A DNA stretch of 64,000 nucleotides from an uncultured Chloroflexia bacterium (GCA_963810095.1 CAWEMM010000006.1:1696001-1760000), one strand, 5' to 3'; counted from the stretch's first letter, positions 3,961-18,093 are shown. The notes: generated by a model not told the origin, from the sequence alone. Numbers and translations are program-made.

Positions 3961-5242
3961 GGTTGGCGGGCTCCGCCGGACGGTGTTGCCACTGGCACGG
4001 GATGTACACGAGACCGTCCTGACGCTCTTGCGGGCCCGGCACGACCGTGAACGTGGTCATGCGATGCCAGTGGTCGTACGGATGCGAGACGTGGTTGTCA
4101 TAGATCGCGACTGTAACGTCGTATCTGCCGCTGAGCAGAGGGAGCTTTTCGACGACATACTCGATCGTGCCGCGGCCGTGGATCGTGGGGGGCGCAGCCT
4201 TGCTCCATACCGTATTCGGACCATTGATGCGGTTGCCCCATTCCTCGTAAATGGAAACGCCGAACGCCGGCGACACGACGGGGTGAGGCGCGTGGTAGGA
4301 GATCCGGACCATGAACTTGTCGCCGCTGGTGAAAACCGAAGCCGGCCGGCCCTCCGCATTCAGCAGCTCGGCGCGCTCAATGCGGACTTCGCCCGAGCCC
4401 CACCGTCCGGTCTGTTTCTTGGCTGCAAGCTCTTCCTCCGACGAAGGTTCTTCGTCGCCGTCTCCACTCGGCATGCGGAGGAAGCCATCGCGTTCGGCCT
4501 GTTGCTCCCACAGGCTTGACAGGTACGCGGCGCCCACAGCATCGCTCAATCCATCCGCACAGACGCGGCCGTCGTCGATCCAGATCGACCGAGGGCACAG
4601 CCGCTGGATAGAGCCCAGATCGTGCGAAACGACGACGATCGTGGCGCCCTCGCGCCCGATCTCATGGATGCGGCGGATACAGCGGTCCTGGAAGGCCTGG
4701 TCGCCAACGGCCAGCACCTCGTCGATCAGCAGGATCTCGGGTTGAAATGCCGTCGCCACGGCAAAGCCGAGCCGCATGAGCATGCCAGAAGAGTAATTGC
4801 GCACCGGCACGTCGATGAAGCGTTCGAGTTCTGAAAAGGCAACGATCTCGCCCACCCGGCTGCGTATGTCCGCGCGGCGCAGGCCCAGGATGGACCCGTT
4901 CAAGTCGATATTCTCGCGGCCGGTCAGATCGGGGTGGAAGCCTGCACCAAGCTCGAGCAGGGCGGCAACGCGCCCTTGCACCGTTATCACGCCCGCGTTC
5001 GGATGGATGATGCGGGAGATGAGCTTGAGGACAGTGCTTTTGCCCGAGCCGTTCGACCCGATGATGCCCACGGCAGCGCCCGGCTCGATCTTAAAGCTGA
5101 CGTCCCTGAGCGCCCAGAAGATTTCGGCCTCGCGGGCGGCGCTGCGCGAGCGGCTGAACGTGTGCACCAGTTTCTCCTGAAACGACTGGGCGCGTTCTTC
5201 GTCGATGATGAATTTTTTGGAAACGCCTTCGAATGCGATCAT
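3953..5242 (-). CDS. wzt: Polysaccharide ABC exporter ATPase with C-terminal carbohydrate-binding domain
   Basis: Walker A GSNGSGKST, YSSGMLMRLGF signature, DEVLAVGD, C-terminal RWGSGEVRI domain. Confidence 0.93.
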   Translation of the reverse strand: MIAFEGVSKKFIIDEERAQSFQEKLVHTFSRSRSAAREAEIFWALRDVSFKIEPGAAVGIIGSNGSGKSTVLKLISRIIHPNAGVITVQGRVAALLELGAGFHPDLTGRENIDLNGSILGLRRADIRSRVGEIVAFSELERFIDVPVRNYSSGMLMRLGFAVATAFQPEILLIDEVLAVGDQAFQDRCIRRIHEIGREGATIVVVSHDLGSIQRLCPRSIWIDDGRVCADGLSDAVGAAYLSSLWEQQAERDGFLRMPSGDGDEEPSSEEELAAKKQTGRWGSGEVRIERAELLNAEGRPASVFTSGDKFMVRISYHAPHPVVSPAFGVSIYEEWGNRINGPNTVWSKAAPPTIHGRGTIEYVVEKLPLLSGRYDVTVAIYDNHVSHPYDHWHRMTTFTVVPGPQERQDGLVYIPCQWQHRPAEPANRG

Positions 5243-6831
5243 GGTTTCACTTTGCGTCGGTAGATGGCGACCGATCGATTGGCGTCGCGCACCAGTTCTG
5301 CCAGTTCAAAATCTTCGGCCACCGAAGCCCGGATACGGTCGATTTCGTCGGGCTTGAGTCGTAAGAACGTTGCCTCATCCCACACCACTACGCTGGCCTG
5401 ATCGACCAGCGCAGTGACGCGCGAGAACGGCTGAGTATATAGCATCGCGTAGGGCCGGTCCGCATAGTATGCAACGACCGTAGCTTGATGCACGACTGTT
5501 ACTAGCTCGCCTGGCGCGGTCGTCGCTGCTACCTGTCTTCCTGCCTGCGCGAGGCTGCCGTAGAACTGTTCATTTGCGAGTCGCTCCGCATACACCGGCG
5601 CCACCCAAGGCATGGCGAGGCCCGGCATACGCGGCAGCAGCGGCGGTCGGACCACGCCGGCGAACGCGAACACGACGACGAAGGCCGCCACCGCGGCCGC
5701 AGACCCGACGGCGCGGCCGGAACTGCGGCTCGCATTCCAGATACGGACCAGCATGTGGGCGGCGATGAGGGCCGCAGCGGGCAAGACTCCGATCAGGTGG
5801 CGCGGCTCCTTCAAGCTGGTCAGGAAGGACAGCCCGACGGCGACCAACATGTAGGCCCACAACAATCGCAGGCCGCGCGGAGTGCGATTCCGCTCGAGCA
5901 CGAGACCGCCGAGCCCCAGGAGCAACCCAGCAACCAGTCCCGGGCTGAGGAGCTGTGCGCCGACCTGGCCGGCCCAGACCCGCCACGAGAGGCCTACCCG
6001 GGGTTCGGATGCAACGGGCGAGACCGCCGAGTCAATCCAACGTTTCATTGTAGCGGCAAAAACGGTTGGTGACAATTTCCATGACAGCGCGGCCCACGCT
6101 CCCAGGGCCAGCAGCGCCGGCGCCCCCACAAGCACCGCACCCGACAACGCGCGCCGGGGAGTCCTGCGCCTCTCCCATGCGACGAAAGCCGCGGCGACGC
6201 CGGCAGCGGCGAGCGCGAACTCCTTGAAGAGAACGGCCAGCGCAAACGCGAGGCCTGCCAGCAACAGGCGCCACCCGCTGTCCGTTTCCAATCCCACCAC
6301 AACCAGGTAAAGTCCGGCAAGTATGGCCAGCAGCATGAACATTTCCATGCGAACGAAGAACGCATAGACCAGGAAGAAGGGGGAAATCCCAAGCAGCAGA
6401 GCTGCGAGCAAGCCGACCGGCCGGCCGCCCAGGCGCAACCCGAAACGGTAGGTGAGGGCGAGTGCTGCGAGTGCTGCGAGCACCGTGACTGAGCGGGCGA
6501 AAAAAATCCCACCCGCTGTGGGACTTGCGAAGAGGCTCAACAAGTACAGGTAGAGCGGCGTATGATCCAGGAAGACGGCTCCTGCGCCGATCGAGCGCAG
6601 CGGAACGCCTACCCTTTGAATGCTGCGCGCGACGTCGAGGAAAATCGCCTCGTCATATTCGGCCGTGCGGACAGTGGCCATGAGCGGGAGGAGCAGAAGC
6701 AGACTGGTGGCGGCCACAGCAGCCACAGAGGCCGCATGAGAGGAGCCGAGGCCGCGCAGCTTGGTCCCGACGCCGGTCAGCTTGCCTGCACCTGGTGAAT
6801 CCCGTACAATGCAGTTATGGTTCTGCTCCAA
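5239..6831 (-). CDS. ArnT/PMT-like (GT39/GT83) membrane glycosyltransferase; start uncertain
   Basis: YDEAIF, DHTPLY and VRME motifs; about 12 TM segments. Confidence 0.8.
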   Translation of the reverse strand: MEQNHNCIVRDSPGAGKLTGVGTKLRGLGSSHAASVAAVAATSLLLLLPLMATVRTAEYDEAIFLDVARSIQRVGVPLRSIGAGAVFLDHTPLYLYLLSLFASPTAGGIFFARSVTVLAALAALALTYRFGLRLGGRPVGLLAALLLGISPFFLVYAFFVRMEMFMLLAILAGLYLVVVGLETDSGWRLLLAGLAFALAVLFKEFALAAAGVAAAFVAWERRRTPRRALSGAVLVGAPALLALGAWAALSWKLSPTVFAATMKRWIDSAVSPVASEPRVGLSWRVWAGQVGAQLLSPGLVAGLLLGLGGLVLERNRTPRGLRLLWAYMLVAVGLSFLTSLKEPRHLIGVLPAAALIAAHMLVRIWNASRSSGRAVGSAAAVAAFVVVFAFAGVVRPPLLPRMPGLAMPWVAPVYAERLANEQFYGSLAQAGRQVAATTAPGELVTVVHQATVVAYYADRPYAMLYTQPFSRVTALVDQASVVVWDEATFLRLKPDEIDRIRASVAEDFELAELVRDANRSVAIYRRKVKP

Positions 6832-6845
6832 AGGTGCACCGTCCT

Positions 6846-8480
6846 ATGCCTCCAGCCTCCAACCGCCGCACTCGCGTCCTCTTGTGGGCCCTGCTGTCCG
6901 TCGGTCTGCTTCTGTTCCTGCTTGCCTTTGCGGTCCAGGTGCGACGAAATCCGCTGCGAGGCGACGAAGTCGATTTCTTTCAGTGCATGCGCAACGTGGT
7001 TGCGCTGGGACGGCCGCTGTACTACGCCGGCGAGGTCGACATCGCTCCGGCTTCTGTGCTTTCGCTTGGCTCGGAGTCTCTGGCAGGCCAACTCTTTCAA
7101 TTCTATCGCTTTAAGCCCGCAACCAGGATTCTGAAAGAAACCTTCTTCGCAATCACGGCCGGCAATAGCCGGTATACATATTGTCTCTGGCACCCACCGC
7201 TCTACATCTATCTTGGCGCCGGTTTATTGAAGCTATTCGATCCCCCGACCGCGCAGGCGAACTTGTTCCGCTTCACGCACCTGGTATACGTGGCGCTGAT
7301 GTTCGCCGGGATGGCGGCGCTGATGCGCGAGCTCTACCGGCCCGTGTGGCTTCTCGGGTTGGCGCTCGCCGCGCTCTTCCTGGCCTGCTGCAATCTCGCC
7401 GTCTCGGCCAGTGTACTCATCGACTACAGCGGCGCTCTCGCCATGTGCGTTGTCGTCTGGTTGACATACGCTTGCGTGCGGACGGACCGCGAGCCGCGCT
7501 TTGCGCTGCCGGCCGCAGGCACCTTGGCGCTCGCCTTTGCAGTCGGGCTCGGCGTGGGCGCGGCGTGCGCGTTGGGGCTGCTGCTGTGGGGGCTGTTGCT
7601 CCGTCGAGATGCATTCATGCGCTACGCACTAGTCGTGCTCGGCGGCGCGGCATTGTTCCTCGTTGGGTGGTGGCTCCTTGCGCGAGTTGCAGGGCTCCCG
7701 TTCACCCAGCCCTTCCTCCACAATTTCCAGCGTGCCGCGCTCGGCGCGCCCTTGGCATCCCGGCTTGCGGCCGTTATCCACTACACGACCTGGTACGTAA
7801 AACAGATCGGCCCGGCGGCGGTCGGGCTAGCTCTGCTGCTGTCCGGGTGGCGGGTGCTCCGGTTGAGCAGCACCCACGTTCGCGTTTTGGCTACCGCAGA
7901 CTCGCCGGCGCGTGACGTGCGTATCCTTCTGTTGCCAGCACTGGTCGGCGTGGCCTTGCTCTCCCAGGCGGCGCTGAGCGCCGACGCCTACGGATTCCCC
8001 AAGTATGTCGCCTATGCGCTGCCCCTGCTGTTCGTGTTCATCGGCGGCGAGCTAGCCTTGCTGGCACAGTCCCGGCCTGCCCATTGGCTGGCGGCAGGGG
8101 TGACGCTGGCCCTCATCGGGACCCTGATCTGGCAGACCGCGGAGACGCTCGGGAAGCCCGGGGGAACGCTATATATGGCCGGCGAACAAGGCTTCCTTGC
8201 CGCAGCAAACCTGGTGACCGCCCATTCGACGCCCGACGAGGCCTTCCTTGGCAGCAAGGACGTGGGCTTCTACGCCGGCCGGAAGTTCGTCCAATGGTCG
8301 GGCAACCTCCTCAGCAACTTCCCGCTGCTTCAGGAACGGGTCGAGGCCGAAGGGGTGCACCTGGTTGCCGCAAGCCAACAGCAGCTCGACGCCTTGAGCC
8401 CGGAAGTCGCTGAGTGGCTGAACCAGCACGCCACCCTCCTAACTTCTTCTGGCGACTATGCCGTCTATCGCCTCCGCTAA
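6846..8480 (+). CDS. GT-C-like membrane protein
   Basis: GDEVDF and WHPPLY motifs, many TM segments; ORF 6795..8480, likely ATG 6846. Confidence 0.7.
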   Translation: MPPASNRRTRVLLWALLSVGLLLFLLAFAVQVRRNPLRGDEVDFFQCMRNVVALGRPLYYAGEVDIAPASVLSLGSESLAGQLFQFYRFKPATRILKETFFAITAGNSRYTYCLWHPPLYIYLGAGLLKLFDPPTAQANLFRFTHLVYVALMFAGMAALMRELYRPVWLLGLALAALFLACCNLAVSASVLIDYSGALAMCVVVWLTYACVRTDREPRFALPAAGTLALAFAVGLGVGAACALGLLLWGLLLRRDAFMRYALVVLGGAALFLVGWWLLARVAGLPFTQPFLHNFQRAALGAPLASRLAAVIHYTTWYVKQIGPAAVGLALLLSGWRVLRLSSTHVRVLATADSPARDVRILLLPALVGVALLSQAALSADAYGFPKYVAYALPLLFVFIGGELALLAQSRPAHWLAAGVTLALIGTLIWQTAETLGKPGGTLYMAGEQGFLAAANLVTAHSTPDEAFLGSKDVGFYAGRKFVQWSGNLLSNFPLLQERVEAEGVHLVAASQQQLDALSPEVAEWLNQHATLLTSSGDYAVYRLR

Positions 8481-10108
8481 CGACCCGCCGTGCGGAGGAC
8501 CAGGGGAAGCCACAACTCGTGGTTTGGGACAAACACCCTCCCCTGTAGAACGTTGTCCCCTTCGTTCGATTCGTCGACGACCCCGCCGGCGTCAGCCTTC
8601 ACCCAGTAAGAATGGAGCCCAGGCGTAAGGCCGGTCCACGGTTTCTGCGCAGTGACGACGCGACTCCCGCAGCCGCCCAGCTCTGTCGAGATCGTGGAAC
8701 TGCCGATCAGGTCCGTGAGGGCCGCGTCACGGTAGAAGCTCACCTCAAAGGTCTGGCCGCTCGTAACGCTGCCTTGATTGCGAACTTCGGCAGCGAGCAA
8801 GACGTCGCTCGTGCCGTTTGTCCCGCGAGGAGGGCTTGGCCGGGTGCTCCACGTTCCCTCCGGCACCAGGTTGACGGTCCGTACTGCTGCTGCTCCCCGG
8901 GCCGAGAATGCCGCGCCGACGACGGACAGTTGTGTGCCGCTCGCGTCGATCAGATTGCTGACCTCACCCGCACCCAGTGCGTACGTGCTGTACCAGAGCC
9001 AGCGCTGCACCAGCCGGTTGTCGTCGCGCGGCATACCCCAGGGCGGGGTCGGCTGTCGTTTCCAGGTAGCTCATCGACGCATTCAGGAATTTGACCACCC
9101 GATCGGGCGTGAAGCACTTCCCGTATTCGTCTTGGAGATAACATCCGCCGGCGTCCAGCTCGTATGGGTACAGCAGCGAGTATTCCGAGATTATCAACGG
9201 CTTCTGCTGCTGGCCGTGGGCCTTCATCCACTGCCGCATGGCCACCACTTGGCCCGCAAACGCCGACATGCTGTCGTGCTCGGCCCAGCAGTAGACGTTG
9301 GCGGCCTGGCACAAGCTGGCGATGCCGCCGCTTTCGCGCACGGCCAGCGTCGGGTCGGTACCCACTGCGATATTGGCAACACCGTTCGGTTGGCCGTTTG
9401 ACCGCGCCTCGGGCAGCACGTAGAGGTGCATGTTCCACACATCCACAGGCATGTCGACGCCGTACAAGGCCCTGAACGTATTCCACACAATGTCGAGGTA
9501 TTGCAGGCGGCCCGGGGTAACCTCCACGAGCCCCGCGTTGGCGACCCGGGCCGTGGGATCCACGCGCTTGATGTAGGAGTACACGTCGAAGTAGGCGCGG
9601 CATACACGTCCGCCCTCGTATCATCCTGCACCCGGTCCACGCAAGCGGTGTCTTCTGGGTTTGGTCCGCGGTCGGGCTCGTTACCCACGATCCACAGGGC
9701 CCCCGGACGGCCTAGTACGGCCGCGCCCAGCCCGCCGGCGTTAAGAGCGGGACTGGTCGTGTACCCCGGCAAATAGGTGCAGCCCTGTTTGTTTTGGCGG
9801 ATGCGAACGACGGGGACATACTCAGCCGTCTGCGCGGCGCCGTCCTGCGACGAGAAGTTGACATACCAGCCGGCCGACAGGGGGTTCAACCAGGTATATT
9901 GTTGAGGACTCAGCGCCGCGACGCCATAACGGCAGCTCGGTCCGGCCGCTGCGGCGCCTGGGGGCGCCCAGGGCCCTTCAGCCTGCATGACTGGCCGCGC
10001 GTTGGACTCGGAGGAGGGGTCCGCCAATACGACCGAACTTTCGAGAACCAGCAGCGAGGCACCGAAGACCAGGCCCAAAACGAGGTGTCGAAAGGCTTGG
10101 GAACGCAT
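8477..10108 (-). CDS. Secreted clan GH-A-like glycoside hydrolase + CARDB domain + C-terminal LWLPLVLR tag (frameshifts near 9595 and 9030)
   Basis: Signal peptide MRSQAFRHLVLGLVFGASLLVL; WIVGNEPD, DVWNMHLY, KPLIISEY; CARDB-like VRNQG..VDESNEGDN; pieced from three consecutive ORFs. Confidence 0.75.
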
Positions 10109-10116
10109 CAGGAGTC

Positions 10117-10974
10117 TTATACTTTCTCGCCAAAGTCATGGCTGTGTCGCGTGAAGAACCAGTAGCCAATCGCGAGGACACCGACCGACGTTATGGCAGT
10201 GCGGAGGAAGAAGTCGAGGTCCGTGCGGTAACCCCAGTAGAGCAGGTCACGGTAGGCGGCAATCAGCGAGGCCATCGGGTTCAGGATGTACATGACGCGC
10301 TGAAGGTTGACCGTGATACCCATGATCTCGTAGCTGGAAGGCAGGATTGCGATGGAGTAAACCACGGGCGTCAAGAAGAACCATGCCAGCAGGACGACGT
10401 CCATGATCATCAGTGTGTCGCGGTAATAGACGTTGACTGCGCTGAGGAACAGCGCGACGCCCAACGTGAAACACGTCTGGATCAAGATGACGAACGGCAG
10501 CATCCACAGCCAGGGGCCGAAATGGGCCCGGGTGATGATGAGCACTACGATCAGCACGGCCATGCCGAGCAGGAAGTTCACCAGGGCCGCGAGGACGCTC
10601 GAGATGGGCAAGGCCTCGCGCGGGAAATAGACCTTCTTGACCAGGTTCGAGTTACCGGCCACGCTGTTGATGCTCAGCATCAGCGCGCCTGTGAAGAAGT
10701 TCCACGGCAACAGGCCGCACAGTAAGAAGATCGGGTAGTTTTCGATCTGGCTCGGCATGATGACGGTGAATACGATCGTGAATACCAGCATCATCGCGAG
10801 CGGGTTGAGCAGGCTCCACAGGAAGCCGAGCACGCTGCGTTTGTAGCGCGCTTTCAAGTCGCGCAGCACGAGATTCACCACCAGGCTGCGGTAGCGCAGC
10901 AGCTCTTGCAGCTGCCACAACATGCCGGGTGTTGATTGGTCTTGTCTAGATGTTGAACTCCCAGGAAAAGCCAC
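10117..10974 (-). CDS. wzm: Polysaccharide ABC exporter permease
   Basis: RDLKARYKRSVLGFLWSLLNPL, LVKKVYFPRE, WFFLTPVVY, LNPM. Confidence 0.95.
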   Translation of the reverse strand: MAFPGSSTSRQDQSTPGMLWQLQELLRYRSLVVNLVLRDLKARYKRSVLGFLWSLLNPLAMMLVFTIVFTVIMPSQIENYPIFLLCGLLPWNFFTGALMLSINSVAGNSNLVKKVYFPREALPISSVLAALVNFLLGMAVLIVVLIITRAHFGPWLWMLPFVILIQTCFTLGVALFLSAVNVYYRDTLMIMDVVLLAWFFLTPVVYSIAILPSSYEIMGITVNLQRVMYILNPMASLIAAYRDLLYWGYRTDLDFFLRTAITSVGVLAIGYWFFTRHSHDFGEKV

Positions 10975-10977
10975 CAG

Positions 10978-12291
10978 CTAACCTCGATAACGTTCGCGCC
11001 GGGCCACGCCGGAGGGGATCGGATCGTGCGGCGTGTCCCACGCGGCCGGGGCCTGGGCAGATGCGGACCTACCGCACACGGCCCCGTACACACGGCTGAT
11101 TTCCTCAGCCATCGTGCCCCAGCGATAGTAAACCAGGGCGCGCTGCCTCAGCCGCCGGCCGCGTTCGACAACCGGCCCGGACCCTGCAGCGTCTGACAGG
11201 GCGTACTCCAGGCATTCCGCAAAGCCCTCCACGTCGCCGGGCGGTGCGTACAGCCCGTCGCCGGCCAGGTACTCGCGCGCGACCGGCGTATCGAAGCTGA
11301 CGACCGGGAGTGCGACGGCCATGTAGTTAAGCAGCTTCCCCGCCCCTTCGGTCAGGCTGAGCTTGGGCGAGACGGCCACGTCGCCGAGTGCCAACATCTG
11401 CGGCGCCTGGTCGTAGGGGACGCGGCCTGTAAATGTCACATGTCCGGCCACGCCGAGCGCCTCGGCCTGCTCCCGGTAGCGCTCGACATTGGGGAAACCC
11501 ATCAGGAGCAGGTGTACGTCTTCCCGATGGGCCACCAGGCGCGCCATCGCCTCGAGCAGCACGCCCGTCCCCTGGTATTCGGCCAGCAGGCCCAGATAGA
11601 CGATCAGCTTGCGGCCGGCCGGGATGCCGAGTTTCTCGCGCAGGTCCGCGAGCTCGCCGGGCGGGTAACACGCGGCGGGCTGGAACTTGTCGCTGTTGAC
11701 CGCGTCGGGCAGCACCCGCACGCGGCCTTCGGCGCAGCCGAATTGCTCCAGCAGTAACCGGCGTGCGTTCGCCGTGCTGGTGAGGATGACCGGTGCGGAG
11801 TGATCGACCCACGTTTCGATCCGGAGTAGAGGTTGGTAGAGCTTGCCTTCCTTCGCCAGAAACCCGTGGTCGACCATTTCGGCGGTCATCGAACCCTGAA
11901 AATCGAAGACGGTGGGCACGCGAAAGAGGCGCCCTAGCACCAGCCCCATGAGCGCGCCTTCGTGCAGATGACCGTGTATGACGTCGAAATGACCCCCGGC
12001 CAGAAGCGTGAGGATACGTGCGCCCAACAGCGCGTCAAACGCGATCTTGTGGCGGCTCGAGCCGACCTCGAAGTTGTCGCGGCCGGGCACCGCCAGGGAG
12101 CGTCGGATGTCGAGCCCGGCGACCGGGCCGCCGTTGTGGTACGTGGCAATGGTGACGGAATGTCCGAGCGCTTGAAGCGCCTGGGCTTCTTCGAGAATGC
12201 GAACGTGGCAGCCGTAGTCTGCGAAGAAACTGGTCGGCGCAACCATCAAGACACGGAATGCGCTCGCGTTGCCTGGCTTTTTACTGCTCAT
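10978..12291 (-). CDS. Family 4 glycosyltransferase
   Basis: APTSFFADYGCHVRI, EGAGKLLNYMA; TATAAT 7 nt upstream of ATG 12291. Confidence 0.9.
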   Translation of the reverse strand: MSSKKPGNASAFRVLMVAPTSFFADYGCHVRILEEAQALQALGHSVTIATYHNGGPVAGLDIRRSLAVPGRDNFEVGSSRHKIAFDALLGARILTLLAGGHFDVIHGHLHEGALMGLVLGRLFRVPTVFDFQGSMTAEMVDHGFLAKEGKLYQPLLRIETWVDHSAPVILTSTANARRLLLEQFGCAEGRVRVLPDAVNSDKFQPAACYPPGELADLREKLGIPAGRKLIVYLGLLAEYQGTGVLLEAMARLVAHREDVHLLLMGFPNVERYREQAEALGVAGHVTFTGRVPYDQAPQMLALGDVAVSPKLSLTEGAGKLLNYMAVALPVVSFDTPVAREYLAGDGLYAPPGDVEGFAECLEYALSDAAGSGPVVERGRRLRQRALVYYRWGTMAEEISRVYGAVCGRSASAQAPAAWDTPHDPIPSGVARRERYRG

Positions 12292-12417
12292 CGTTACGAT
12301 TATACCCGCGCTGCGGCCTCCGGCCAAACCTCTCCGGTCGAGCGATGGCATCGGGCCGCGGGCCGAGGTGTGCGACAGGCGATTGGGCGCGTGCTGCAGA
12401 GGTGGGGCGAGCAGTAG

Positions 12418-12999
12418 TTATTGCAGATCGACGAGCAAGTCGCCCAACTTTAGAACCTCGTCTGCTGCGACCTTCCACATGAGGGGCCGGCTCGCATCGT
12501 CGGCGAGGACGGTGGACTTGGTCATCCGGTTGCCCACCAGGAGCACGTAATCCCCGGGAGTCACGTCGTTAAAGACGAAGCGCCCCTGCTGATCCGTGAG
12601 CGTCGAGGGATCGAAGGCGTCGTCGATGGCATAGACGCATTCCTCCCGTTTGTTCTCCTCGGCCACGCCCGGAGGGCAAACGATAGAGGGGAGGCTCAAG
12701 TTCTGGTTGGCCATGGGCTGGCCCGTCTTGTAATCGATCAGGCGGCCCGCAACCCCGCCCTTGCCCGCGCCGGGTGTCGGCGCCGCGACCTCAACCGCGG
12801 CCGGGGGAGTCGCGAGCGGGCTCTCCGCCGAGAGCGAGGTGGCCTCCGGTTGGACCGAGGGGGCAGGTTTGACCGGCAGCGGGCTCACGGGGACCGTTGC
12901 CGGCACGACGGGCACGCGCGTCCCGCTACAGGCCGCGAGCGCCAGAATCAGAATGCCGAGCACTGCGGCAGATGTAATTCGATGCAAGGACATATCCAC
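12418..12999 (-). CDS. Lipoprotein with carboxypeptidase-regulatory-like beta domain
   Basis: Lipobox LAAC, Pro-rich linker with SPL repeats, TDQQGRFVFNDVTPGDY. Confidence 0.75.
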   Translation of the reverse strand: MDMSLHRITSAAVLGILILALAACSGTRVPVVPATVPVSPLPVKPAPSVQPEATSLSAESPLATPPAAVEVAAPTPGAGKGGVAGRLIDYKTGQPMANQNLSLPSIVCPPGVAEENKREECVYAIDDAFDPSTLTDQQGRFVFNDVTPGDYVLLVGNRMTKSTVLADDASRPLMWKVAADEVLKLGDLLVDLQ

Positions 13000-13188
13000 T
13001 TCCTGAGTTTCTAGGCCTCGAGCGCCCTCACAAGCTGCTTGAAAGGCTCGCTAAACGCATAATACCACCATCGGGGTATTGCCTTTACGCCCCGGCGATG
13101 TTACATTGCAACGGCAAATAGATCAAATAAGGCATGTTACGTTGATCTTAAGCAACAAAAACATCAGTTGTTCTCTTGAAAGGAGAAA

Positions 13189-14628
13189 ATGATGCGACGA
13201 CATCAGATGGTGGTCTTGCTGGCAGTGATGATGCTCCTGGCATCGGTCGGCCTGGTTTCTGCGCAGACCGGTTACGAAGTCCCCTTCGCCACGTCGATCA
13301 CCTACCAGAACGTGAGCTCCTCGCAGGCCCACGTGATCTTCAGCTTCTATAACCAGAAGACGGCAACTTCGATCAACGTCGAGCGCGACCTGCCCGCGAA
13401 TGCCGGTTCGTCGCTGTCGGTTGCCGGCCTGACCGGCGCCGAGGCTCTGCCCGCGAACTTCCTCGGTTCTGCGGTCCTCAGCTCTGACTTCCCGGTGGTT
13501 GCCACGCTCGTGCAGATTCCGCAGCCGAGCACCGGTGCGGTGAAGAACCGCCCGCTGTCGAACGGTTTCGCCCAGGGCGCGCCGCAGGTGTTGCTGGCGA
13601 CCGTGTTGAAGAATCAGTTCAACACGAGCAGCCGCTTCTCCATCCAGAACGCCTCGGACGGCAACGTCGACATCACCCTCAAGTTCTACCGGGTGGGTGA
13701 GACGGCCGCCGCAGCGACGCTGACGGAAACGGCCATCCCGGCGGGCGCGGCCAAGTATTACGATGCCGGCACGCAGGCCGAGCTGGGCGCCTCCTTCAAC
13801 GGTTCGGCCGTCGTCACCGCGGTGGCCTCGGGCACCGCCAACCCGGCGAATATCGTGGGCACCGTGCTGGAACTTGAGACCACCAATGTTGGCGTTCGCG
13901 CCTTCGAAGGTGTCCCGAGCACTGCGGCCGCCAATACGGTCTTCATGGCGACCGCCCTCTGCAACTCCTTTGGCAGCACGTCGTTCTACGCTGTACAGAA
14001 CACCAGCAGCTCTGGCGACGCAGCCGTCACCGTCACGTATTCCAACGGCGGGACCCAGAGCGACACCATCCCTGCCGGCGGCAAGAAGAGCTTCGACACT
14101 TGCGCGGCCACGGGCGTTGCGGCCGGCTTCTCCGGCGCTGCCAAGATCACGAGCACGGGCGCCCCGATCGTCGTTATCGGCAAGGTCGGCGGCGCGGGTC
14201 GCTATACCGCATTCCTGGGCGAGACCAGCGGTGCGGCCAAGCTCGCCCTCCCGTACGTGCGCTGGAGCAACACCAAGTATGACACGGGCCAGTACCAGCG
14301 TGCCTTCATCGCCATTCAGAACACCGGCGGTTCCGACGCTGCCAATGTCAAGGTGCACTACCTGAACAAGCTCGGCACCGAGGTGGGCGTGCACACGATC
14401 GCCAACATCGCGGCGGGCGCCAAGGCCAACTCGAACGCAACCAATGCCGGTAGCTCGATCGAACTGACCGAGTTCGGCAATCCGGAAGCGAACCCGGGCG
14501 GCGGCTTCGGCGGCTCCGTGATCATCGAGGGCCCTGCGGGCAGCCAGCTGATCGCGATCGTCCGCATCTCCTCGAACACGGGCGGTGGCACCGTTTCTGA
14601 GGACTACAACGCGACGGCGATCCAGTAA
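13189..14628 (+). CDS. Secreted four-repeat beta-sandwich protein, S-layer-like
   Basis: RBS GAAAGGAG, signal peptide ending VSA|Q, A/G/S/T-rich, four repeats with QN at residues 40, 153, 270 and 377, strongly biased codons, own terminators. Confidence 0.75.
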
Positions 14629-14745: not shown

Positions 14746-15474
14746 TTGTTAGAAGTGCGGACGAATAGCTTGACCCGGGCCGTCTGGAGCGCGCGATTGC
14801 GCGTGACCGATCCTCAGGCGTACAGCATCATCCAGGCGGTGCGAGCGGCGAGGCTGACCTATCTGAGTGTGCAGGCGCTGGATGACCTGCGGAACGCGGC
14901 CCGACGAGCGGACGAGCAGCGGGTGGCGGGTGCGATCATCGAGGCGGGTGTGGCGCTGGGCGGATCGGCCATCGTCCTGGCGAAGTTTAAGGCCGATGCG
15001 CGTCCACTCTACCTCTACGACGTTTTCGGGATGATTCCTCCCCCGTCAGCGGATGACGGACCTGATGCGCATGCCCGCTACGCCGATATCGCAAGCGGTC
15101 GCTCATCCGGCATCGGGGATGACCGGTACTATGGCTATGAAGATGGGCTGCTCGAAAAGGTGCAACAGAACCTGGTGCAGTTTGGCGTGGATCGGGAACG
15201 GTCGCACGTGGACGTGTTTCCGGGGCTGTTCGAGAATACACTGATGATTGACGAGCCCGTGGCACTGGCCCATATCGACTGTGACTGGTATCAGTCGGTG
15301 ATGGTGTGCCTCGAACGCATCGTGCCACGGCTTGCCATGGGCGGGGTTGTGGTGATCGACGATTACCGGGATTGGTCGGGCTGCAAACGCGCCGTTGACG
15401 AATACTTCGCCGCGCGGCGCGCGGAGTTCAAGTTTACAATGCGAGCGCGGCTGCACATCGAGCGGCAGGGTTGA
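14746..15474 (+). CDS. TylF/MycF-family sugar O-methyltransferase
   Basis: IIEAGVALGGS, LYDVFG, AHIDCDWYQS, GGVVVIDDY. Confidence 0.88.
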   Translation: MLEVRTNSLTRAVWSARLRVTDPQAYSIIQAVRAARLTYLSVQALDDLRNAARRADEQRVAGAIIEAGVALGGSAIVLAKFKADARPLYLYDVFGMIPPPSADDGPDAHARYADIASGRSSGIGDDRYYGYEDGLLEKVQQNLVQFGVDRERSHVDVFPGLFENTLMIDEPVALAHIDCDWYQSVMVCLERIVPRLAMGGVVVIDDYRDWSGCKRAVDEYFAARRAEFKFTMRARLHIERQG

Positions 15475-15506: not shown

Positions 15507-16772
15507 TCACTCGCCGGCACGCCTGAAGGGTGTGGGGCGAGACTTGCCCAGTGCCAACCAATACCCAACCAGCAGAACGAACTCTGTCAGCACGTAAATC
15601 CACGCCACGCCCCGGATGCCCCACACGCTGACAATCGCCAGGTTCGCGAAGATGCTGATCGCTGCCGCAACGGCTTGCGCGGAGAGCCGCCGGCCCTGTT
15701 GTCCCGTGCCGACGACCGCGGCTGCGAGGGCGAAGGTCACACAACGCAGACCCAGGACGAGCGACAGAATCACGAGGATCGGCCCGGCCGCGGCGTACTC
15801 TATCCCGTACAGGCGCCGAATGATCCAGTCGGCCGATACGGCAATGCCCGCGGCCAGGACTAGCCCCAGTGCAGTATTCAACGCCAGGAAGAGGCGCAGT
15901 GTCTTTCCAAAGGCCGCGCCCTCGACATGCGCCCGTGTGAAGACGGGCACCATCACGTAGTAGGCCGCAGCCGGAACGAGGAAGAGCGTCGTGACGATCG
16001 TCGAGGCCGGTCCATAGATGCCCGCCTGTCTGCCCCCCAGAAATTGCGCGACGATTGTGACGTCGACCCGCTCGTAGATGACCGCGAGGAAGAGCGAGGC
16101 GGCGAAGGGCGCGGCCTCGCGCAAGATGGGCACCATGGCGGACGCGTCGAAGCCAATGCCGATGTCGCGCCGCAAGATGAAGATGGCAAAGAGGCAGCCG
16201 CATATGGCCACGATCAGCCGTGCGAAGAGGAACGGCACCAACTGCTGTGTCCCGAGCTGAATCAGCCCGATGGTCACCACGACCAGCGCAAACTGCACTG
16301 AAGTGATGATCTTGAAGGTGACATCGTTTTGCAGGGTGCTCTTGAAGGCGCTCCAAACCGTGTTGGTCAGGTCGTCGGCCCAGACGAAGAGCGCCGTGAT
16401 GAGCAACACGGTGGGCGGAAAGACGGCAGGGTTGAGCGCGCGAGAGACGAGCATGAGACCCAGGAACCAGAAGCAGCCGAGCAGCAGCTTCCAGGCCAAG
16501 GCCGTGCCGCTCTGCACCGCAACCGCACGGCCGCTGGCCGCTCCGCCGCCGCGCCACAACAGCCACCCGTCGAAGCCCCAGGAAAAGGCCACCGAGCTAA
16601 GCCGAGCCAGCGAGAAGCACGCCAGATATTGCCCGTAACCCTCGGGCCCCACCTGCCGCGCCAGGAGGATCAGCGCGACTGCAGTCATGACACGCGCCAA
16701 ACCCGTGCCGGAGACAAGCGCGGCAAAGCTCCTGAGGATCTGCTTACTGTTGGGCAGGCGGCTGCCGGTCAT
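15507..16772 (-). CDS. Wzx-type oligosaccharide flippase
   Basis: LARQVGPEGYGQY, IYERVDVTIV..AGIY; about 12 TM segments. Confidence 0.88.
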   Translation of the reverse strand: MTGSRLPNSKQILRSFAALVSGTGLARVMTAVALILLARQVGPEGYGQYLACFSLARLSSVAFSWGFDGWLLWRGGGAASGRAVAVQSGTALAWKLLLGCFWFLGLMLVSRALNPAVFPPTVLLITALFVWADDLTNTVWSAFKSTLQNDVTFKIITSVQFALVVVTIGLIQLGTQQLVPFLFARLIVAICGCLFAIFILRRDIGIGFDASAMVPILREAAPFAASLFLAVIYERVDVTIVAQFLGGRQAGIYGPASTIVTTLFLVPAAAYYVMVPVFTRAHVEGAAFGKTLRLFLALNTALGLVLAAGIAVSADWIIRRLYGIEYAAAGPILVILSLVLGLRCVTFALAAAVVGTGQQGRRLSAQAVAAAISIFANLAIVSVWGIRGVAWIYVLTEFVLLVGYWLALGKSRPTPFRRAGE

Positions 16773-16773
16773 A

Positions 16774-18093
16774 TCAATCCAGCGATCCGCGCGCCCGGGC
16801 GAGAGTGGCGTAGTCTGCCGCAATGAGCGCAGCGGCCGCGGCGGCTTCCTGCTGCAATGCGGGGAGTCTCTGCTGAATCAGCGCTCTGACTTCCAGGCGC
16901 TGCTGCCAAAGCAGCTCCAGTCGCGCCGTCAGGAGCGATTCGTCTACGTCGACGATGTCGAGCACCCAGTCGCCAAGGCCGAGCATGCCCAGCACGCCGT
17001 GGGTTTTGTACTGGTAGGCGATCGCCAGGACGGGCGTTCCCGCCGTCAGCGCGAAGATGTTGGAGTGCAGGCGGGCGCCCAGGAAGAGGTCCATTTGCCC
17101 ATAGGCGGCCAGGAGCCGGCCCGGCGACCAGGTTTCATCGACCAGGACCACCTGCGATGGCTTCGCCTGCGTGCGGCCGGCGACACGTCTTGCGGGTATC
17201 CGGTCGTCGTCCACAACGCTCGGCCCTGTCACCTGCGGGAAGATGAAGACAGTGCCGCCGTGCCGGGCCAGGAAATCGGACAGCGCAGCGCTGACCGCTC
17301 GCTCGTATTCCGCCTGCCGGGCGAAGCGCCGGTTCTTGATCCCCCAGTCGATCACCGTCACGCCCAAGTAAGGGCGGGGCCTTGACTCGACGGCCGGATG
17401 GCCGAGCAGCGCAGTGAATGGGTTGAGCTCGCCCGCGCCATGAAAGAGGAAGGCGCTGTCTGGGAATACGTGGCAGCGCTCGGCCGCAACCCCGAGTTGC
17501 TTGACGGGCTCGAGCGAGCGAGTGTCACGGAGCGCGACGAAGCGCATTTGCCTGAGCAGGCGCTTGAGGAGCCAACGTTCTCGGCGCCGTGTCAGCGGAC
17601 CGATGGTCTGGGGCATCATGTAGAGCGGCTTGCCCAGCAGCCGGCCGTAGGCCAGGGCAAGCACATGCAGGAGGAACGCGGCGCCGAGCCCCGAGCCGCT
17701 GTAGAAGAAATTGCCCGGACAGCTGACGATCACGTCTGACCGGCAGTACGCGAGCAAAAGATCGCGTCGCGGGCCTTTTCTGGGCGCGGGCCAGCAGCGT
17801 GGGAAGGTGCGGGCGGTCCAGGCAACCAGGCAGCTTTGCACCAGCCACCAGGGCAGGGCAGGCAACCGTCGCCAATCCCACCTTTCTCGCCCGCCCTCTT
17901 CGGTTCTGAACCAACTCATGAACGAGCCGACGAACGAAGCGTCGTCGCGGTCGTCCAGCTCCTGCAGGCTGTCGATGGCGACCGTGATCTCGCTGTCCGG
18001 GAAGTTGGCGACCAGCTGTTCCAGTGTTACCTCGAGCAGCACGCGGTCGCCGGCATTTAGCATGGAGTGTGCGTTAGTGACGAGGATTCTCAA
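16774..18093 (-). CDS. Polysaccharide pyruvyltransferase (WcaK-like)
   Basis: NAGD, PQTIGP, LRDTRS, PDSAF, GARLHSNIFA, IAYQYKT. Confidence 0.9.
   Translation of the reverse strand: MRILVTNAHSMLNAGDRVLLEVTLEQLVANFPDSEITVAIDSLQELDDRDDASFVGSFMSWFRTEEGGRERWDWRRLPALPWWLVQSCLVAWTARTFPRCWPAPRKGPRRDLLLAYCRSDVIVSCPGNFFYSGSGLGAAFLLHVLALAYGRLLGKPLYMMPQTIGPLTRRRERWLLKRLLRQMRFVALRDTRSLEPVKQLGVAAERCHVFPDSAFLFHGAGELNPFTALLGHPAVESRPRPYLGVTVIDWGIKNRRFARQAEYERAVSAALSDFLARHGGTVFIFPQVTGPSVVDDDRIPARRVAGRTQAKPSQVVLVDETWSPGRLLAAYGQMDLFLGARLHSNIFALTAGTPVLAIAYQYKTHGVLGMLGLGDWVLDIVDVDESLLTARLELLWQQRLEVRALIQQRLPALQQEAAAAAALIAADYATLARARGSLD

Follow-up and report, generated by a model that had tools for sequence, protein, structure and literature searches.

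Within a 64,000-nucleotide stretch of DNA from an uncultured Chloroflexia bacterium (GCA_963810095.1, CAWEMM010000006.1:1696001-1760000; hereafter the window, in whose coordinates all positions are given), we analysed two genes whose products could be partners on the cell surface. The first, which we call the scaffold gene (13189..14628, plus strand), is an open reading frame (ORF) for a secreted stand-alone tetrad of 479 amino acids, whose repeats read as ASRT/DUF5719-like (ASRAH) beta-sandwiches. The second, the cargo gene (10108..8477, minus strand), carries two indel errors and codes for a secreted glycoside-hydrolase-like protein with a CARDB domain and a C-terminal tag. The scaffold protein begins with a signal peptide (residues 1-25, ...GLVSA|QT; 13189..13263), read, with its putative cleavage site, from the sequence and from a 30-sequence alignment of the scaffold family (A1). 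Repeats 2 (13582..13932), 3 (13933..14235) and 4 (14236..14625) each open with a hydrophobic lead strand, namely QVLLATVLK at 13585..13611, TVFMATALC at 13936..13962 and KLALPYVR at 14239..14262, all on the plus strand. Most of this strand is absent from repeat 1 (13264..13581, plus strand, placed by a hidden Markov model (HMM)), where QTGYEVPF lies ahead of strand 2 (ATSITYQN). On the minus strand, the CARDB domain of the cargo protein (8546..8833; PF07705, E=1.9e-8, 34.9 bits against a cut-off of 22.7) sits within its last 197 residues, and the chain closes with the tail ELWLPLVLRTAGR (8518..8480), whose core motif WLPLVLR (8492..8512) receives 17.1 bits from a position-specific scoring matrix (PSSM) of such tags. 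The C-terminus, ...VFVPNHELWLPLVLRTAGR, immediately precedes the stop codon, and no hydrophobic span follows the tail, which agrees with the claim of the initial annotation that the tail bears no membrane anchor.

Pfam and NCBIfam scans of the 479-residue scaffold returned no match above cut-off. Its family is nevertheless large, with 813 matches at E<=1e-3 (7999 candidates scored) and 574 cluster representatives at 50% identity; the few source names available are Caldilinea, Litorilinea, Ardenticatenia and Anaerolineales. In the window's own genome, just one such tetrad protein is found by a single-repeat profile (A4, built on 33 repeats of 11 proteins). When the four segments were cut from a 104-sequence family alignment (A2) and compared profile against profile, all six pairs reached probabilities of 95.0-98.8%. 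The alignments of repeat 2 with repeat 3 and of repeat 3 with repeat 4 begin at position 2, thereby covering the lead strands, KLALPYVR included, while those involving repeat 1 begin only at its positions 7-11, opposite positions 20-22 of the partner. Likewise, the A4 match in the window scaffold starts at model position 18 for repeat 1 and at positions 1-2 for repeats 2-4, and in 10 stand-alone tetrads from 10 genomes and 10 families the match to repeat 1 starts at model positions 15-20. In 30/30 sequences of A1 there is only a short mature N-terminus (Q-x-x-A-Y-x-T-x-F before TSITYQN), with Y29, T31 and F33 at least 90% conserved. In the register that sets F33 opposite F144, this region coincides with 3-5 positions at the end of the lead strand; because of this overlap the strand is mostly, not wholly, missing. 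The initial annotation had credited repeats 2-4 with a lead strand, which the profile alignments and the HMM bear out, and had denied repeat 1 any such strand, which has to be softened accordingly. A few scaffold homologues (P0155, P0108 and P0220) carry a lead-strand-like C-terminal extension (...PYLAFIVK in P0155, ...APLVLLNQ in P0108), through which repeat 1 could be completed in cis or one subunit joined head to tail with the next.

The domain to which the lead strand belongs was assigned by mean-field direct-coupling analysis of 840 pooled repeat units from 280 tetrads, with an effective sequence number (Meff) of about 500. Columns 2, 4 and 6 of the lead strand couple with columns 83/84, 86 and 88 in the penultimate strand of the following domain (consensus QIVAIVRV). 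These three couplings rank 4, 8 and 13 among all pairs and define a parallel register. The alternative framing, in which a domain is taken together with the next lead strand, yields one such pair only (rank 7). Since covariation favours the following over the preceding domain, the lead strand opens its repeat, as the initial annotation had assigned it. It covaries with a single partner strand, and strand 1 is probably an edge strand. The equivalent partner strand of repeat 1 is at about residues 102-110 (PVVATLVQI). Within repeat 3, C258 (13960..13962) and C305 (14101..14103) are invariant in 104 sequences and coupled in covariation; they probably form a disulfide joining the end of the lead strand to the body of the domain.

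To place the fold, profiles of solved structures were searched, and the only hit was the Anabaena sensory rhodopsin transducer (2ii7, E=0.037, repeat 1 residues 36-121), below threshold; Pfam ASRT (PF07100) matched repeat 1 at E=0.11, also below threshold. Those protein-language neighbours of homologue P0094 that have any family at all are DUF5719/ASRT clusters (0.93 and 0.92); P0094 is the scaffold homologue of Litorilinea aerophila, a cultivable member of the Caldilineae. Two fused relatives, L078 and L079, exceed the PF18986 (DUF5719) cut-off (28.2 and 39.2 bits against 26.2) and also match A4. Through these weak direct and transitive matches, the scaffold can be read as a stand-alone ASRAH-type tetrad. 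The Asn of the QN pair found in every repeat (N41, N154, N271 and N378) is invariant in A1, and N is the sole invariant column of A4. According to the sections drawn on here of the description of the ASRAH superfamily (De Souza, Iyer, Aravind 2009, PMC2739507), its members are eight-stranded sandwiches in which strand 1 starts with a conserved aromatic residue, and strand 2 leads through a near-invariant terminal Asn into a tight turn. They are predicted to bind sugars, and their secreted forms are dyads or tetrads, some of them in Chloroflexi enzymes (PMC2739507). As far as those sections go, the scaffold resembles this superfamily (ASRT PF07100, PDB 2II7/1NC7; DUF5719 PF18986) in that its QN matches the strand-2 Asn and in being a tetrad, and the predicted sugar binding would suit a polysaccharide locus. 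Among 266 unique lead strands, 83 have Y and 25 have F at position 2 (L, F and A in the window), a position that may correspond to the strand-1 Trp of ASRAH. Unlike known members, the scaffold passes no Pfam cut-off and is a stand-alone tetrad with a first domain lacking strand 1; the sections of PMC2739507 referred to above describe no first domain devoid of that strand and no other proteins that bear strand 1 as a free tail.

The tail of the cargo protein is one of many. We searched the six-frame, stop-to-stop ORFs of the 6.13-Mb genome with the strict motif [YFW]LP[LIVM][LIVM]x[KR], which occurs 41 times in 7,422,563 residues of 40,617 ORFs, 18 of the 41 at the exact C-terminus. Relaxed forms of the motif gave 37 C-terminal cases, from which 31 were retained as clear tags. 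A basic residue two positions before the aromatic one is common among them, so that the tail reads [RK]-x-[YFW]-L-P-[LIVM]-[LIVM]-x-[KR]. A DNA pattern of tag plus stop codon, which sees only Y/F-initial tags with CTN leucine codons, has 15 matches in the same genome against 0 for the reversed control. Among 401 sampled Chloroflexota genomes this pattern matched in 154, with at least four matches in 32 and at least six in 21, the tag-rich genomes being concentrated in few families that belong to more than one class. The statement in the initial annotation that such tails are common in Chloroflexota is therefore well founded. Searches of the literature on the tag, on Chloroflexota sorting signals and on DUF5719/ASRAH brought up nothing on the tail motif or on a split ASRAH domain.

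Conservation of the tail extends to orthologues of the cargo protein. Among the 120 homologues listed (421-614 amino acids), most of which have PF07705 and three PF11790, 69 end in the motif, 47 exactly on it and 18 with one extra residue; the three closest orthologues share the longer tail of the window protein, with 4-5 residues beyond the R of the motif. The carriers, on the other hand, are unrelated. Pfam domains were found on 13 of the 19 tagged ORFs scanned and comprise BNR/BNR_2, SdrD_B/SpaA, CBM9, Peptidase_C25, PKD, PD40+TIG, RCC1, FG-GAP, PA14+M23, Kelch and DUF6242. The motif also appears right after signal peptides (3 ORFs: one on G000:C10, at amino-acid offset 49707 in plus frame 1, and two on G000:C11) and internally (about 4 cases, which precede Pro/Thr linkers). 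One post-signal-peptide example reads ...APPHRLYLPLVLR, followed by what looks by eye like a lamin-tail segment. Because of these positions the motif is not strictly a C-terminal signal, and they are easier to reconcile with a binding peptide than with a C-terminal signal that is processed. Furthermore, the tripartite organization of sorting signals (motif, hydrophobic helix, basic tail) is lacking, the motif being terminal or followed by 1-5 residues.

To compare tail and strand we used two matrices, the tag PSSM, built from the 31 tags, and a lead-strand PSSM, built from 266 unique family lead strands and zero tags. Scanned with the tag PSSM, the scaffold itself places lead strands 2nd and 3rd of 473 windows, with scores below zero and another strand as best hit. 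Taken alone, this would amount to a generic likeness between strands, a reading superseded by the lead-strand PSSM at the family level. Proline is present in 173 of the 266 lead strands, which follow a pattern like V-[YLA]-[MLI]-P-[TSY]-[VA]-[LR]-[KCW], and divergent members have KFYVPLVAK, KWFVPLFTSR and KFYLPTVRS. The initial annotation had suggested scoring C-termini with a model of the lead strand. When the PSSM was run on the C-termini of the 17,161 ORFs of at least 150 amino acids in the same genome, the 34 tagged ORFs came out at the top, at ranks 1, 3, 5, 7, 9, 12, 22, 25, 29, 30, 35 and onwards, that is, 11 within the top 35 against about 0.07 expected; the window cargo tail received 6.0 bits. 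Our results show that the likeness is real, and judging from these scores the tail is the sequence equivalent of the strand missing from repeat 1. The resemblance first noticed between tail and lead strands thus stands at the family level; the window's own strands are weak matches, and KLALPYVR, then singled out, is not the best counterpart, the closest being lead strands of the repeat 2 type and those of fused first repeats.

These fused first repeats provide what we regard as the strongest new evidence. Fusions were sought in genomes with many repeat matches by looking at 10 repeat-bearing ORFs, which is no census. Six of the 10 (from genomes G095, G140, G379, G347, G104 and G131) consist of an N-terminal region, a Pro/Thr-rich linker and a tetrad, and the first repeat of each begins with a tag-like strand: ..ATRQYLPVVLR, ..APRLYLPVVLR, ..TRLALPLVMR, ..PRLVLPLVMR, ..STVYLPALAR and ..SQVYLPLIMQ. 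The remaining four have less tag-like first strands. In the fusions a short loop that ends in GW connects the lead strand to strand 2 (..RQYLPVVLR|GYEGW.., ..RLYLPVVLR|GYSGW..). Stand-alone tetrads of ten divergent lineages, for their part, have a ..G(T/S)GW segment right after the signal peptide. It follows that a cargo tail, whose end is the K/R, together with a stand-alone repeat 1, whose start is a few residues ahead of the GW loop, would reconstitute the chain of a fusion, which would constitute Rosetta-stone-type support for docking. As for the N-terminal regions, Pfam recognizes Peptidase_S8 with its prodomain in L073 and finds no match in L078, L079 and L083; L076 and L077 give weak GH39/GH10-like matches that do not exceed the cut-off. 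Direct homology of the window cargo family to the N-terminal parts of two of the fusions was considered and rejected, the comparison giving a weak local match near the NEPD motif (E=0.033) and none with L078. When homologues of greater length were searched for with the repeat profile, the 120 listed were all stand-alone tetrads.

Tag and tetrad also occur together. In the 401 genomes, scaffold matches were found in 100 with the full-length profile and in 99 with the single-repeat profile. The repeat domain is present in 21/21 genomes with at least six tag matches, in 30/32 with at least four and in 69/369 with fewer than four. The two exceptions with at least four matches have reversed-control counts of 2 and 5, and their tag matches are probably noise. 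One complete, one-contig genome (G295) has 14 tag matches, 12 of them at ends of ORFs of at least 130 amino acids, and appeared with the full-length profile to be tag-rich without a scaffold, until the single-repeat profile found a tetrad of 548 amino acids whose first repeat starts at model position 19. The refuting case that the initial annotation had named alongside its proposal on co-occurrence, tag-rich genomes devoid of the scaffold family, was hence not encountered in the sample. Conversely, the 12 genomes with at least 10 repeat matches, which hold multiple tetrad proteins, have one tag match in total, while tag-rich genomes have 2-8 repeat matches, or about one tetrad each. This looks like two alternative strategies, one in which each enzyme has its own tetrad and one in which many tailed enzymes share a single tetrad.

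The surroundings of the scaffold gene were compared in 12 loci around its orthologues in 11 genomes. A Wzx-type flippase (15507..16823, minus strand) and a polysaccharide pyruvyl transferase (16774..18093, minus strand), both assigned by Pfam, lie within about 5 kb in 10/12 loci each, and a TylF-type methyltransferase (14746..15474, plus strand; Pfam) is found in 4/12. This synteny, which spans several Chloroflexota families, suggests that the ligand of the tetrad is a pyruvylated surface glycan. Upstream of the scaffold gene, a lipoprotein-like neighbour (12418..12999, minus strand) has a lipobox (LAAC, by eye), a Pro-rich linker and a CarboxypepD_reg-like domain (E=4.8e-5, below cut-off). 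A homologue of it adjoins the scaffold gene in 7/12 loci of other genomes, and its product could be a membrane tether of the tetrad or another partner of repeat 1. The interval from the cargo to the scaffold gene further holds, according to Pfam, an ABC-2 permease (10117..10974) and a group-1 glycosyltransferase (10978..12351), both on the minus strand. The label of S-layer-like protein given in the initial annotation finds no backing here, as there is no evidence of a lattice or of SLH domains and no Pfam or NCBIfam match. Cryo-tomography of Litorilinea aerophila (Caldilineae) has shown a lattice-like putative protein layer on a shared outer layer (PMC13319060), whose protein is not named in section 2.2 of that paper.

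The mechanism that we favour as an explanation of these results is the following. The tetrad, encoded in a conserved locus for a pyruvylated surface polysaccharide, would probably bind that polymer on the outside of the filament, with a first domain that starts just past the expected site of strand 1. About 30 secreted proteins of the genome that have nothing else in common, the product of 10108..8477 included, carry the tail, which would most likely add as a beta-strand beside the penultimate strand of repeat 1, and many cargo proteins could in this way dock non-covalently on one anchor protein, in what would be a split form of the enzyme-linker-tetrad fusions of other Chloroflexota. Docking of the tail on repeat 1 by strand complementation is plausible, and we hold to it tentatively, at a little under even confidence; its logic is partly supported by independent comparative evidence, from the lead-strand model, the fusions and the co-occurrence, and by the covariation. 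The evolutionary form of the proposal is that an ancestral fusion of enzyme, linker and ASRAH tetrad was cut between strands 1 and 2 of its first domain, and that dozens of enzymes keep a 7-9 residue strand-1 tail and share one free polysaccharide-binding tetrad. This split-domain display we consider quite possible, if somewhat less likely than not.

A number of observations weigh against such docking. Mature repeat 1 retains 8-10 residues before strand 2, Y29, T31 and F33 among them, and these N-terminal residues could cap the free edge; because strand 1 has only one partner strand and is probably an edge strand, its loss may be tolerated. With the tag PSSM, the 17.1 bits of WLPLVLR compare with -1.6 for LLATVLK and -2.5 for ALPYVRW of the scaffold's own lead strands. 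A Potts coupling score was uninformative, giving 23.6 for tags with repeat 1, 28.1 for tags with repeats 2-4 and 10.3 for shuffled tags with repeat 1 (family lead strands with repeat 1 score 42, and native pairs 160, in-sample). The co-occurrence is confounded by phylogeny. In 5/5 genomes with strand-less stand-alone tetrads, a relaxed tag pattern is found less often than its control (25, 11, 6, 7 and 19 matches against 37, 27, 23, 20 and 62), and the strict DNA pattern shows no excess in these five either; since strand-less tetrads occur without detected tags, the gap in repeat 1 by itself demands no tag. Close scaffold orthologues (E<1e-90) are found in genomes with 0-3 tag matches, and genomes with 27, 26 and 21 matches hold only distant members of the family. 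Tags are near-identical across families, when repeat 1 goes down to about 20-30% identity. The family is also variable, as the stand-alone tetrad L074, from a tag-free lineage, has a complete first lead strand. Finally, the initial annotation had cargo and scaffold in the same locus, a pairing that is not conserved, a cargo homologue being present in 0/12 of the orthologous scaffold loci.

Part of this evidence would be accommodated if the tail were a sorting or retention signal for another receptor or machine (a peptide-binding domain, or a secretion or attachment factor belonging to the multilayered envelope), its likeness to the lead strand reflecting descent from the fusions or a shared strand-type motif and not present-day pairing. 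A many-to-one spread on unrelated secreted proteins is what known sorting tags display, and near-invariance of the tag beside a divergent repeat 1, close scaffold orthologues accompanied by few tags, tag-rich genomes with distant tetrads only and strand-less tetrads without tags would all follow naturally. We nonetheless deem this unlikely: no candidate receptor emerged, the tail has neither a transmembrane span nor a basic tail and usually nothing cleavable past the final K/R, the motif is also N-terminal and internal, and a tetrad domain accompanies the tags in every one of the 21 most tag-rich genomes. Improbable, in our judgement, is a repeat 1 that would be a self-sufficient seven-strand variant, or be completed by its own termini or by a neighbouring lattice subunit, so that the tetrad would only bind the pyruvylated polysaccharide and the tails would have their site of action elsewhere or be left over from gene fission. 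A relic would not be expected to persist at the very end of about 30 unrelated proteins per genome or in 69/120 orthologues, and the complete first strand of L074 indicates that the strand is not dispensable everywhere. Yet a strand-less first repeat is universal in stand-alone tetrads, also in lineages without detected tags, and the conservation of Y29, T31 and F33 ahead of strand 2, the apparently single partner of strand 1, and a synteny that involves polysaccharide genes and not cargo all point that way, as do the rare homologues P0155 and P0108, whose own lead-strand-like C-termini could provide completion in cis or between subunits.

The tail might also act free of any partner, folding onto its own beta-sandwich domain or inserting into an outer envelope layer. 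Its core is hydrophobic on both faces and its end basic, and in many cargo proteins it comes a few residues past a beta-sandwich domain (CARDB, SdrD_B, PKD or TIG). However, preceding domains are of many folds (Kelch, RCC1 and C25 peptidase among them) and some tags stand behind long Pro/Thr linkers, which makes a common cis-packing site unlikely. Such a reading would explain neither why the tail is like the lead strand in particular nor why tags and multiple tetrads are distributed in a complementary way, and it appears to us very improbable.

Strand complementation between polypeptides has precedents. In chaperone-usher and type V pili, an incomplete beta-sandwich is completed by a strand of another polypeptide; it is the last strand that is lacking, and the next pilin or a chaperone supplies it; a polymer results, and dedicated machinery or proteolysis is needed. 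The proposed docking resembles these systems in having an acceptor domain that lacks one strand, as judged from its sequence, and a short terminal donor of hydrophobic pattern that matches it. It differs in that strand 1, not the final strand, is absent, that about 30 unrelated cargo proteins would act as donors to a single acceptor, a tetrad of sugar-binding type, and that no machinery is known. Non-covalent docking of many enzymes to a surface anchor is also achieved by cohesin-dockerin pairs and by SLH domains on CsaB-pyruvylated cell-wall polymers. The presence of a polysaccharide pyruvyl transferase near the scaffold gene in 10/12 loci recalls the SLH/CsaB system, to which the proposed one would be analogous yet distinct, as docking would use a strand of 7-9 residues and not a folded module; Pfam and NCBIfam scans revealed no SLH, cohesin or dockerin domains.

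With the LPXTG/sortase, PEP-CTERM/exosortase, GlyGly-CTERM/rhombosortase and MYXO-CTERM/myxosortase systems, as presented in the parts of the literature on which we drew, the tail shares a lineage-restricted C-terminal signature found on dozens of unrelated secreted proteins per genome. In contrast to those tags, again as presented there, its motif is followed by neither a transmembrane helix nor a basic cluster; 47 of the 69 tagged orthologues stop at the motif itself, so that no cleavable part is left; the motif is further seen behind signal peptides and at internal sites; and no cognate enzyme was found. To our knowledge, established many-to-one C-terminal tags all require a processing enzyme, and we know of no account of how proteins are retained on the multilayered envelope of Chloroflexota. 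If docking on repeat 1 is confirmed, it would represent a new anchoring principle, in which a tail completes a split sugar-binding domain, and a new class of prokaryotic anchoring signal that is free of sorting enzymes. It would furthermore explain a widespread motif that has had no receptor (154/401 sampled genomes), give a function to a conserved family of 'hypothetical' tetrads and supply a small natural pair of peptide tag and catcher for display engineering.

The reading frame of the cargo gene deserves a comment. In the window the gene lies in three frame pieces, and a tblastn search with an intact homologue of 546 amino acids (P0271) gives collinear matches in frames -1, -3 and -1. The frame switches at 9599 and near 9033, both times at the 11-mer GTATGCCGCGC. 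Contigs of public sediment-metagenome runs have an extra C behind 9599 in 3/3 covering runs and one base fewer at 9030 in 2/2, these being four runs of one study, possibly of the source sample and not independent of the assembly. Together, the two changes restore a single ORF, 10108..8477. Because the run contigs restore the frame, the gene is intact in the reads and the frameshifts are errors of the assembly consensus. The 11-mer has 13 sites in the genome against 8.3 expected, and an open frame switches at four of them, the two in the cargo gene and two others (G000:C6:281404 and G000:C12:508087). It may thus mark a systematic consensus error of the assembly; as a systematic frameshift signal it was set aside, the sites being too few to conclude. 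Several tagged stop-to-stop ORFs begin without a plausible start codon, and among 20 tagged ORFs (L001-L020) a signal-peptide-like start is in the same ORF in nine and in none of the other 11. Further indel errors probably break other genes for secreted proteins in this assembly.

Adjoining the cargo gene, 5239..8480 contains two overlapping genes on opposite strands that encode large polytopic membrane proteins. One of them matches PMT_2, a glycosyltransferase of the dolichyl-phosphate-mannose type, and the other has no Pfam match; mannosylation of proteins or glycans may hence be part of the same envelope locus.

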